The translations under genes were made by a program, and so were the position numbers. From the NCBI RefSeq assembly GCF_021028975.2, contig NC_059440.1:27528001-27592000 (forward strand): a stretch of DNA of 64,000 bases, read 5' to 3'. Position 1 is the first letter of the stretch. The number at the start of each line of letters is the position of its first letter. Under the pieces are notes generated by a model. That model was not told where the DNA came from and did not search any database. It saw nothing but the letters and a program-made list of their open reading frames with translations. This document shows positions 25,431 to 30,308 of the stretch, one piece after another. The DNA comes from Sphaerodactylus townsendi. Its lineage: Eukaryota.

Positions 25431-26050
25431 AGAGAGTCAGTCTGTGCCGTACTGAGGGAGATGCTGTCTGTGCTAAACTTACAGTGTTATATGAAGTGCA
25501 GAATCGCCAAAGATATAGGAAAAAACATTGAGAGGCGAGGAATCAAATCCTAAGATGGATTCAGAGATGTCAAGGAGAGAGTGGATTGATGTAAAGCGGG
25601 AGGCACATCAGCAGAAGTTGTTGGCTCCGTTTATTTGTCGTAAATTATTTCTTGAAACCTTTAAGCTAAAGAACATACATACAAAAATGTGTAGCTTGTT
25701 GAATGTATCCTGGAATCCCACACTAGTAATTTCCTCGGAACCACGTAGCCCTTCAAAGCTGCTTTAAGGCTCAGACGCACCAGGAGAAATTATCAAGGGA
25801 TTTGGAATTAAATTCCTGAAGGCAGTGAAATATAGAGAAAGAAAGGAATAAAATAAACGTTATTTTGCACCTGCTGTATTTATTTACAAAGAAATAAGAG
25901 AGGTGGCATCGCAGGCTGGCCAGCTTCAACTGCTGCCTGGATCCAATTTTTTACTACTTCACTTTGCCCCGCCCCTCCCCCCCTCCCCAATAACAGGCTC
26001 CTTTTGAAGTAAACGGGACTGAGAGAATTCTAAGGGAACTGTGACTAGCT

Positions 26051-26919: not shown

Positions 26920-26985
26920 GAAGAAGAAATGGGAAGCTATGTGATTTCTTTGCTGAAGAAGAGCCTGACTCAAATCACAGCGTGA
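26920..26985 (+). CDS. INTS11: INTS11 coding exon 17 (stop; total CDS 1803 nt = 600 aa)
   Basis: EEEMGSYVISLLKKSLTQITA*; exon lengths sum to 601 codons. Confidence 0.9.
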   Translation, partial: EEEMGSYVISLLKKSLTQITA

Positions 26986-27090: not shown

Positions 27091-27096
27091 AATAAA
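27091..27096 (+). terminator. INTS11 polyadenylation signal AATAAA
   Basis: 105 nt after the stop, followed by a T-rich downstream element. Confidence 0.7.
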
Positions 27097-27514
27097 TTTT
27101 AATTACAGTATCTTTGGCCTTTTTCTGCTGAGGTGTGCCGATGAACTTACCGAGATAAAAGTCCTGTTTTGGATAGTCATCCCCTTTGCAGTCCCCAAAT
27201 ACAACAGCGTCACACTGTCTTTTACCAGACTGCAAATCTACTGGCAATTAATGCCCCCGATAGTATTAGTTTTCTTGTAAAATGCTCGCTGCTCGAAGCT
27301 GTTTCACTGATGAAAACAGAGATGCATTTGGAGACGTGCACACAAAATGCCTTCTGCCGGATGAGACCATTAGTCCTTCTGGCTCAGAACTAGCTACCCT
27401 GAGCAGCAGGGTGAGATCCTTGAGCCAGGCATGCTTGGGAGCTCCAGCGTGTAAAGAATCCTCTCGGCAGCGATCCCTGCCACTCAAGCGGCGTCTTCTC
27501 TGCGTCGAGGAAGC

Positions 27515-28591
27515 TCAATTTCCGTTTAAGGTCTGCCAAGCTACAGTGGCCCTTTTCAACAAGGTCACCGCACCCATGTCTTCCGGTTGCCGTACTTCGC
27601 CAGCGTATGGGAGATTGCAGTTCTGCCCCCCGCTGACGGTGTAGACTTTTGTGGCCCTGGTTTTGAGAGGCAGCTGGCAGCGCCACCGCTTGCGGGCCGA
27701 AGTGAAGTAGTAAAGAATGGGATTCAGGCAGCAGTTGAAGCTGACCAGCGCCAAGGTTACCCGGCGCATTTTGTAAATGAAGGTCGCAAAGCGGCAGGTC
27801 CGGAGGAGGCCGGCCCGCATCAGGAAGTGGAGCAGGTGGGTGAGGTGGTAGGGCAGGAAGCAGGTCACGCAGATGAGGAGGATCAGGTAGATGGTGCCCA
27901 GGGCTTTCCTCTTGCGGGCGCTGCGGGGGATGCGAGAGATGCGCCTGGCGATCAAGGGGTAGCTGATCAAGATGACCACGAACGGAATGGCAAAGCCGAA
28001 CACCAGGGCGCAGACGTTGTAAGGGACCATCCGCCCCCAGCTGCCCGCTCGAAAGCTCTCGAAGCAGGCCGTCCTGTTGCTTTTGCGGGAGGTCAGAGGT
28101 CCCCCCAGCACGAGGGGAATTGCCACACCCATCGCCACCACCCAGAGAAGGGCGCAGACCACGCCGTAATGGCCCCCCTTGATCCTGATGTACGCAAAAG
28201 GGTGGAGGACTGCCACGTACCGGTCGACGCAGATGCAGGTGAAGAAGGCGACGCTGAGGTAGATGTTGACGAAGTACATGCTGCCGGTGACCCTGCAGGC
28301 CACGTCGCCGAAGATCCAGTCGTTGCGGTGGAGGTGGTAGTGGATCTTGAACGGCAGGACGCAGACAAACAAGGTGTCCACCACAGCCAAGTTGATGAGA
28401 TAGACGAAGGATCTGGGCGCACCGGCCGTCTTGCAGGTCAGAAGATATAAGGCCGCTACGTTTTCCAGCAGACCCAAAACGAAGACCGTGCTGTAGACGG
28501 CGGGGAAGAAGGAATACTGGAAGTCCGCTTGAAGGAGGCACTCAGAACTGGCATTGGCCAGAGTCAAGTTAGACGGGCCTCCTCCTTCCAT
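27515..28591 (-). CDS. Orphan class A GPCR, LPAR4/LPAR6 (P2Y5)-like, intronless ORF, 358 aa
   Basis: Seven hydrophobic segments; NLAVVD (TM2), WIFGDVAC, CVDRY (TM3), ACFESF (ECL2), CFLPYH (TM6), NCCLNPILY (TM7); N-glycosylation sequons; Kozak ACCATGG at 28591. Confidence 0.93.
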   Translation of the reverse strand: MEGGGPSNLTLANASSECLLQADFQYSFFPAVYSTVFVLGLLENVAALYLLTCKTAGAPRSFVYLINLAVVDTLFVCVLPFKIHYHLHRNDWIFGDVACRVTGSMYFVNIYLSVAFFTCICVDRYVAVLHPFAYIRIKGGHYGVVCALLWVVAMGVAIPLVLGGPLTSRKSNRTACFESFRAGSWGRMVPYNVCALVFGFAIPFVVILISYPLIARRISRIPRSARKRKALGTIYLILLICVTCFLPYHLTHLLHFLMRAGLLRTCRFATFIYKMRRVTLALVSFNCCLNPILYYFTSARKRWRCQLPLKTRATKVYTVSGGQNCNLPYAGEVRQPEDMGAVTLLKRATVAWQTLNGN

Positions 28592-29061
28592 GGTGTCTGG
28601 AGAGGCTTCTGTTCGTCTCTGCAAGGGTCTGAGAGCGCTCAGCGCTCAGATCTGGGGTTCACCAGGACTTGGCAACTCCCGTTTCTCCCCTCCTCTTGAA
28701 ATGAGGGTGCTGCCGTAGCGAGTTGTTCATGTGCACTTTGGGGAGGGTGGGTGGAGGAAGCCTCTTCATCTGTTCCACAGCAACAAGCCACAGGAAATGA
28801 CGAGCAGAGCCCCGGTGCTGAGGTTTCCAGTGGAATTGAAGGCTGCAATACAGCGCAGGTGAGCTGCAATCGGACCTGGGTTACCTCCAAGGTCTTGGTG
28901 GCTCCCATCCGATTCACTGCAGACCTGCCAAGCTAGGTGCAGGTGTCCAGTGAGGGGCTGGGCTTTGTTCTGGCCCTTCTCAGCTGCCATACATAGGAAC
29001 ATAAAGCTGGACAGGACCTCAAGGGCCATTAAGCCCAACCCCATGAATAACACAAAATATT

Positions 29062-30273: not shown

Positions 30274-30308
30274 TTATTCTTCTACCTCTGCTGTTCCTGT
30301 CTCCAAAT
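30274..30308 (-). CDS. PUSL1: PUSL1 last coding exon (8)
   Basis: Polypyrimidine-TTGCAG acceptor; phase 1 continues as (D)LETGTAEVEE*. Confidence 0.75.

Follow-up and report, generated by a model that had tools for sequence, protein, structure and literature searches.

The open reading frame (ORF) at 27515-28591 (minus strand) of the window, the 64,000-nucleotide stretch of Sphaerodactylus townsendi DNA analyzed here, encodes an orphan class A (delta-group) G protein-coupled receptor (GPCR) of 358 aa in a single coding exon. Judged by phylogenetic trees and topology tests, the receptor is a member of a distinct jawed-vertebrate family that extends from sharks to birds, and is not a paralogue of LPAR4/6; it belongs to subtype A of the three subtypes of this family. 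Its architecture is that of an ordinary class A receptor, and it was probably catalogued in 2019 as GPR205A by Rinne et al. (PMC6504862), a match that we made by subtype pattern and ranges, not by a sequence id, as far as the accessible parts of that paper describe them. New here are its distinction from LPAR4/6, a prediction about the pocket that can be tested and a degraded marsupial stage.

Receptor gene and genomic context

Pfam 7tm_1 matched the ORF with an E of 9.4e-52, and the AlphaFold2 model comprised seven helices and helix 8 with a mean pLDDT of 84.5. The receptor has seven TM helices, N1.50, D2.50, R3.50, W4.50, P5.50, P6.50, P7.50 and the C3.25-ECL2 disulfide cysteines, and 13/13 of the class A motifs scored are kept. 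By alignment, an intact DRY (D123-R124-Y125) lies at 28217-28225 and an intact NPxxY (N290-Y294) at 27710-27724, both on the minus strand. Domain, model and motif checks thus agree with the first-pass annotation, which had described a complete, intact seven-transmembrane ORF of 358 aa. Contigs of runs X1 and X2, near-identical to the window, cover the ORF with zero differences, and a contig of run X4, from a related organism, covers the coding sequence without a gap.

The start codon stands in a strong Kozak context with a candidate splice acceptor directly upstream (28589-28605, minus strand), and we infer a putative non-coding exon 5' of the start. Candidate polyA signals of the receptor (minus strand) were noticed at 27103 and 26735, within or past the INTS11 3' end, and a plus-strand signal of INTS11 at 27091. 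Because the receptor candidates fall there, the two 3' ends may overlap. The sequence also encodes a second pair of cysteines, C18 and C266 (28538-28540 and 27794-27796, minus strand), which could form a disulfide. The pair occurs in 29/119 aligned tetrapod rows (squamates, two caecilians and one turtle), always both or neither, and is missing from the bird and crocodilian rows. A second disulfide, 1.24-7.25, is a feature that LPAR6/4/5 share with squamates, caecilians, fish and subtype B of the receptor family.

The last coding exon of INTS11, a gene identified by its RMMBL and IntS11_C domains, lies at 26920-26985 (plus strand), so that the receptor and INTS11 stand tail to tail with 529 bases between their stops. 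On the other side, about 1.7 kb upstream of the receptor ATG and on the same strand, lies a candidate last coding exon of PUSL1 (30274-30308, minus strand), which resembles the chicken PUSL1 C-terminus and fits in splice phase. PUSL1 extends from about 61830 down to 30274 (minus strand), a span of about 31.5 kb in which the largest introns reach about 10 kb. The INTS11 domains and the PUSL1 candidate exon confirm the earlier placement of the ORF between these two genes. We assume that human INTS11 and PUSL1 adjoin tail-to-tail with no GPCR between them; true LPAR6 presumably sits in an RB1 intron. A scan with short motifs found no ACAP3 exons.

Quail, bamboo partridge and sugar glider have gene models that fuse PUSL1 with the receptor, and in turtles, kiwi and alligator the receptor protein itself is named PUSL1. 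Synteny with PUSL1 was read from such models and names and covers birds, turtles, alligator and sugar glider, not fishes. Chicken records named PUSL1 in the guineafowl cluster proved to be true PUSL1 and were not counted. As annotations in several species fuse the receptor into PUSL1, overlapping or read-through transcripts may exist.

The last INTS11 intron holds an inverted 58-base copy of the receptor TM7 coding segment (25915-25972, plus strand; 52/58 identical, E 1e-16). It borders on a dispersed repeat (about 25530-25915); most of the copy is covered by the run X4 contig, so it is common to that relative. The copy is probably local sequence picked up at an insertion.

Relative to run X4, the coding sequence differs at 17 letters in 16 codons, 8 synonymous and 8 not. 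The synonymous share of 8/16 compares with an expected 0.26 (p 0.032, for one contig and with CpG and GC3 bias ignored, GC3 being 0.81); over residues 18-300, 7/10 changed codons are synonymous (p 0.0046). Counting sites by hand, we obtained a dN/dS of about 0.35-0.39 over the full coding sequence and 0.15-0.20 for the core, both from small counts; the first-pass annotation had set dN/dS as a check, and the ratio lies below 1. Within these counts, the pattern shows that the receptor is under purifying selection, and deep protein conservation agrees.

One residue is deleted between W5.31 and R5.34 (28031-28039, minus strand) in this gecko and in run X4, a deletion that is not in 116 other tetrapod rows (3/120 did not match the pattern). 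This change at the top of TM5, together with three non-conservative core changes relative to run X4, might suggest a silent or decaying relic in this gecko, but that is very improbable. The 13/13 activation motifs and 14/14 pocket residues are intact, synonymous changes are in excess, identity to other geckos is 80-85%, and the coelacanth orthologue likewise lacks one residue between W5.31 and R5.34.

Phylogenetic position of the receptor family

Searching with the receptor returned 257 proteins at E ≤1e-30 among 3,869 candidates. The 120 matches listed come from geckos, lizards, snakes, birds, turtles, a crocodilian and caecilians, and nearly all are named LPAR6 or LPAR6-like; the best-matching relatives among them are gecko proteins, at 80-85% identity. 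Another 137 of the 257 matches lie beyond those listed, so that monotremes and frogs are unplaced. Members of subtype A also occur in shark, ray, coelacanth, bowfin and teleosts. Core identity to the gecko receptor is 71% for pigeon, 65% for caecilian, 52-56% for fishes and 32% for gecko LPAR6.

Scoring 114 of 280 candidates in the gecko's own genome gave 64 matches. Among these, the best after the receptor itself, L002 (263 bits, 48%), is an intact second orphan at G000:C5:139388922-139389824 and defines subtype B. L003, with 177 bits and 33% identity to the receptor among the same scored candidates, is the gecko's true LPAR6 (527 bits to human LPAR6), which bears out the earlier view that the receptor is distinct from LPAR6. 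LPAR4, 5 and 6 are each present separately in this genome. L005 is the true GPR17, grouping with the other GPR17 rows at 100/100; labels of the remaining gecko receptors are our assumption from motifs and named tree rows.

Subtype B ranges over squamates, turtles, amphibians, coelacanth, lungfish, cartilaginous fishes and basal ray-finned fishes, with no bird or mammal among 89 matches, and subtype C consists of newt, sturgeon and bichir proteins. L002 lies 41 kb from a contig end, near a transglutaminase gene and an EF-hand gene that we take to be CIB-like. Whole-genome duplication as the source of the three subtypes found no support, as the transglutaminase and EF-hand neighbors of B revealed no shared paralogon.

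The first-pass annotation had pointed to the ceramide-1-phosphate transfer gene CPTP, which lies with a taste-receptor-type gene further left of INTS11 in the window. CPTP is about 17 kb from the receptor with all of INTS11 between, and no counterpart was found near subtype B. A tblastn search of one CPTP, one TAS1R3 and three INTS11 exons plus chicken PUSL1 against 140,831 bases around L002, whose contig ends about 41 kb past the gene, gave nothing at E ≤0.01. The suggested link was dropped, and the proximity of CPTP looks coincidental.

A 42-row maximum-likelihood tree recovered the family at 100/98, subtype A at 100/100 and B+C at 100/99, with LPAR4/5/6 and GPR174/P2RY10 in a separate clade (98/96); a lamprey protein attached weakly to the family (89/74). 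Trees of 87, 40 and 31 rows gave the same split, one of them a quick version of a mixture-model tree, and in all four trees the receptor family falls outside the wider LPAR4/5/6 and GPR174/P2RY10 group. GPR20 and GPR55 are not identifiable in this tree set, and GPR35 appears only as a long-branch candidate in one of the 87-, 40- and 31-row trees. Whether the receptor is a 1:1 orthologue of a characterized mammalian receptor had been put forward as a phylogenetic check; the family groups apart from these (100/98).

Topology tests bear on the nearest relatives. AU tests rejected a grouping with LPAR4/6 at p 1.7e-8 (subtype A only), 6e-4 (A+B) and 0.0096 (A+B with a hagfish LPAR6-like row), and the membership of the LPAR4/6 group that had first been assigned to the receptor has to be given up. 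For candidate sisters of the family, AU p was 0.50 for LPAR/GPR174/P2Y10, 0.107 for LPAR4/5/6, 0.62 for GPR17, 0.56 for P2Y1/2/6, 0.42 for CysLT and 0.41 for GPR183, so that none of these was rejected. Of the trees compared, the one that placed GPR17 next to the family reached the highest likelihood (+3.89, p 0.62); pairing subtype A alone with GPR17 was 15.6 log units worse, though short of formal rejection (p 0.17). A 1:1 orthology with GPR17 was rejected because L005, the gecko's own GPR17, takes that place among the GPR17 rows.

In the accessible parts of PMC6504862, an orphan that 'branched distantly from others' is divided into three sets, GPR205A/B/C, with GPR205A in gar, nine fishes, coelacanth, amphibian and four sauropsids and GPR205B/C in gar, coelacanth and reptile. 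The supplement numbers otherwise, and its 'GPR200', with probably three subtypes and annotated zmp:0000001084, fits GPR205. Three subtypes, the pairing of B with C, a position distant from the other receptors of the purinergic branch, a widespread A with narrower B/C and no human orthologue are all as found here. Names and species counts are what the accessible parts of that source give, with no synteny, pocket, marsupial members or function. A literature search for 'GPR205' yielded only Rinne 2019 as relevant, and no paper was found on the chicken LPAR6-like GPCR or zebrafish zmp:0000001084. Nor was a functional paper on the receptor found, in a search that covered subscription journals little and could overlook work published under a different name.

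Hundreds of bird, reptile and fish records name this gene LPAR6 or LPAR6-like, and others call it a PUSL1 isoform, GPR68-like or PAR4-like. Because of this mis-annotation, 'LPAR6' expression or selection studies in these animals may concern another receptor.

Two minor observations concern other gecko receptors. L024 (G000:C13:9091511-9092398) is a P2RY10-like copy that carries an early in-frame TAG; the members of its cluster are, we assume, LPAR4, a second P2RY10-like gene and GPR174. Further delta-group receptors without a name are L019, L021, L046, L068 and L010 (P2Y1-like, PTAFR-like, GPR4/68-like and two long-branch P2Y-like).

Binding pocket and candidate ligands

Pocket positions were set by alignment and residue numbering, not by model geometry, over 119 tetrapod A, 15 fish A, 57 B, 9 marsupial-clade and 16 gecko reference receptor rows; the fused P0116 (tetrapod A) and the chimeric P0178 (B) were dropped. 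Near-invariant in A and B are Q1.31, H2.64, G3.29, E45.52, W5.31, R5.34, H6.52, H/Q6.55, H6.58, R6.62, Y7.32, R7.35 and R7.36, and position 2.60 is mostly K or R. H2.64 is invariant in the 119+15+57 rows, and E45.52 of ECL2 is present in 119/119 tetrapod, 15/15 fish and 57/57 B rows. All 14 signature pocket residues occur in 110/119 tetrapod, 6/15 fish (12-13 in the other 9) and 39/57 B rows, and the gecko receptor has 14/14. None of the 16 gecko reference receptors exceeds 7/14, a contrast that is partly by construction, the signature having been picked from this family.

In the gecko receptor, these positions map by alignment to four segments of the minus strand: the top of TM2 with K2.60 (K82), Y2.63 and H2.64 (H86) at 28334-28348; ECL2 to the top of TM5, C176-F-E-S-F ... 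W5.31 ... R5.34, the side of the LPAR6-type phosphate clamp, at 28031-28066; the top of TM6 with H6.52, H6.55, H6.58 and R6.62 (R259) at 27815-27847; and the top of TM7 with Y7.32 (Y273), K7.33 (K274), M7.34, R7.35 (R276) and R7.36 (R277) at 27761-27775. E1.49-N1.50 (E43-N44) lies at 28460-28465. The first-pass annotation had read Q25 (1.31), K82, R259, Y273, K274-M-R-R277 and E43-N44 correctly, and the pocket is strongly basic, with R5.34, R6.62, R7.35, R7.36 and K2.60.

Two features singled out there are older than supposed. The K-M-R-R cluster had been called new, but R7.35 is found in 116/119 tetrapod, 14/15 fish and 57/57 B rows; K7.33 is not conserved in fish or subtype B. As aligned, Y7.32 and both TM7 arginines are a family signature, and the TM7 arginines are its oldest trait. 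The Glu before the TM1 Asn had been called unusual, but E1.49 stands in 114/119 tetrapod and 9/9 marsupial-clade rows and in 0/15 fish and 0/57 B rows; on this distribution, it is a residue that arose in tetrapod subtype A.

LPA-bound LPAR6 serves as the comparison for an anionic head. In the accessible text of PMC11789011, its phosphate is held by R6.62, ECL2 N171, Y6.58 and W5.31, the glycerol by Y3.33, Y7.35 and ECL2 F169, and the tail by L6.55, V5.39, I5.42, F5.41 and V4.53. Four positions had earlier been cited for LPA binding by LPA6; that text names 6.62 as a contact, and does not name 1.31, 2.60 or 7.32. R259, W185 and F177 of the gecko receptor are identical to the LPAR6 head contacts, and H replaces Y6.58. 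The ECL2 N position is S179 in this gecko and N in 97/119 tetrapod, 13/15 fish and 57/57 B rows; in tetrapod A, R6.62 is kept in 115/119, W5.31 in 117/119 and the ECL2 F in 118/119 rows. The acyl cleft is not kept: the gecko receptor has H252 (6.55), N192 (5.39), A195 (5.42), C194 (5.41), A153 (4.53) and R276 (7.35). Position 6.55 is H in 119/119 A and Q in 57/57 B, 5.39 is N in 119/119 A and mostly S in B, and 5.42 is mostly A.

Since the acyl-tail positions of LPAR6 are polar in the receptor, the ligand would probably be a polar anion rather than LPA. That it combines an anionic, probably phosphorylated head with a polar body is a proposal, read from the pocket residues, to which we give about an even chance. 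As in LPAR6, a clamp of R6.62, W5.31, the ECL2 F-x-N/S and H6.58 would grip the head, with R5.34, R7.35, R7.36 and K2.60 adding positive charge. The LPAR6 acyl cleft (L6.55, V5.39, I5.42, V4.53), lined here by H, N, A and A, would disfavor a C18 tail, and G3.29 would give space beside TM3. Binding would be relayed through the intact D2.50, DRY, Y5.58 and NPxxY to a G protein, by analogy perhaps G12/13, Gq or Gi. Against a polar anion other than LPA, however, stand the retained LPA head clamp, the variation at 3.33, 5.39, 5.42 and 7.35 within LPAR4 and LPAR5, LPAR6 as the best PDB match of the family profile, and a sister position to the LPAR/GPR174/P2Y10 group that the tests do not reject.

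The same observations could be read as a seventh non-EDG receptor, with LPA, a related lysophospholipid or phosphatidic acid as a ligand whose head is bound as in LPAR6 and whose tail is routed differently; this seems to us rather unlikely. R6.62, W5.31 and the ECL2 F and N are kept, along with aromatic 6.58 and an ECL2 C-F-E-x-F...W pattern common to LPAR4/5/6; LPAR6 is the top PDB match of the family profile by a small margin (269.8 bits, GPR17 262.3), and LPAR4/5/6 sisterhood is not rejected (p 0.107). The changes of L6.55 to H/Q, V5.39 to N or mostly S, I5.42 mostly to A and Y7.35 to R argue against it. E5.43, N6.52 and the non-Tyr 5.58 of the gecko LPAR4/5/6 rows are likewise replaced by L196, H249 and Y211, and nesting within LPAR4/6 is rejected by AU. 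Unlike LPAR6/4/5, the receptor family is a separate clade with R7.35/R7.36.

Over 43 pocket positions, similarity (mean BLOSUM) was highest to GPR17 (2.70), with LPAR5 next (2.17); LPAR6 scored 1.85 and P2Y receptors 1.05-1.73. Y2.63-H2.64, T3.28-G3.29, H6.52 and R7.36 are shared with GPR17. In the available portion of a preprint (bioRxiv 10.1101/2025.11.26.690757), H2.64 and R7.36 of GPR17 hold ECL2 in the pocket, and part of the receptor's charge may therefore serve internally. Taken to its end, this would make the receptor a GPR17-like self-activating orphan, in which the ECL2 E45.52, kept in every A and B row, is tethered by H2.64 and the TM7 arginines and constitutive signaling is tuned by expression or allosteric lipids; the GPR17-sister tree with the best likelihood fits this as well. 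We regard it as unlikely. From ECL2 to TM5 the receptor exceeds GPR17 by several residues and follows an LPAR-type layout, R6.55 of GPR17 is missing and R6.62, W5.31, R5.34 and R7.35 are present, five invariant basic residues exceed the need of one glutamate, and placing GPR17 as sister gives no significant improvement over the other topologies.

A nucleotide (P2Y-type) receptor is quite improbable. The fold, H6.52, R6.62, basic 7.36 and Y7.32 also occur among P2Y1/2/4/6 receptors (Y7.32 in P2Y1/2/6), and the topology tests allow a clade with P2Y1/2/6 (p 0.56). P2Y2, P2Y4 and P2Y1 take Foldseek ranks 1-4, and the TM-score on target for P2Y1/2/4/6 reaches 0.91, but the delta-group receptors score almost alike, and neither Foldseek nor the protein atlas separated them. 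The phosphate contacts R3.29, R7.39 and Y2.64 that the accessible text of PMC12075631 gives for P2Y2/4 are missing, being G103, L280 and H86 in the gecko receptor; 3.29 is G in 119/119 tetrapod A rows and 7.39 is L/M. Pocket similarity to P2Y receptors is also low.

A polar anionic ligand other than LPA could be a mediator without a human receptor. The near-invariant pocket from sharks to birds, in two paralogues, makes the family a cheap and sharp deorphanization target in chicken or zebrafish.

Marsupial and songbird orthologues

A koala protein was found in a search of 1.84 billion representatives, and as a query it gave 9 matches among 7,996 scored candidates, namely 8 named marsupials and one unnamed sequence. 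These marsupial-clade rows fall within subtype A; their stem measures about 1.1 changes per column, compared with 0.15-0.22 for sauropsid tips, and their exact place within A is a long-branch artefact. The sugar glider PUSL1 fusion supports the orthology of the marsupial copies. All 9/9 rows keep the ORF but lack D2.50, N7.45, N/D7.49 and Y7.53, 8/9 also lack R3.50, and they keep 3-6/14 pocket residues with a shortened ECL3; they were seen as annotated ORFs, a view in which broken copies would be missed. A structure model of the koala protein, built on a 15-row alignment, has seven long helices at a mean pLDDT of 67.3.

The C-tail motif, V-Y-T-V at 27635-27646 (minus strand) in the gecko, is kept in subtype A from shark to marsupial. 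As [VI][YF][TS][IVL], it occurs in 9/9 marsupial-clade, 117/119 tetrapod A and 15/15 fish A rows, and elsewhere in 5/57 B rows and 2/62 other gecko receptors.

No placental orthologue was seen among the 12 family-best of the best 150 representatives, in word-limited and clustered protein searches. The first-pass annotation had proposed a loss in the human lineage; the absence of a placental copy here agrees, but that wording is too narrow, because the sequences suggest that the gene decayed in the mammal stem and was lost in placentals. Decay would have been stepwise, with a seven-helix protein without its switches in marsupials and apparently no gene in placentals. The marsupial copies form a natural experiment, with GPCR signaling lost and the protein retained. 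GPR50/Mel1c, of an unrelated family, offers an analogy: it is conserved in non-mammals and fast-evolving in mammals, where the ligand site is lost. Placentals still have GPR50, which gained a long tail.

It is possible, if rather unlikely, that the family forms a jawed-vertebrate signaling axis for an extracellular polyanionic mediator unpaired with any human receptor, and that its loss in mammals is seen here at a halfway stage. The marsupial protein (five orders), without ligand clamp or G-protein switches and with the C-tail V/I-Y/F-T-I kept, would then be a ligand-independent scaffold, and one songbird record would show a similar independent decay.

That songbird record, P0208, has lost the DRY and keeps 7/14 pocket residues. 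Among other passerine rows, two keep 14/14 and one keeps 12. As compared here, this suggests that some passerine orthologues (P0208; P0117) are degrading, a second and independent relaxation.
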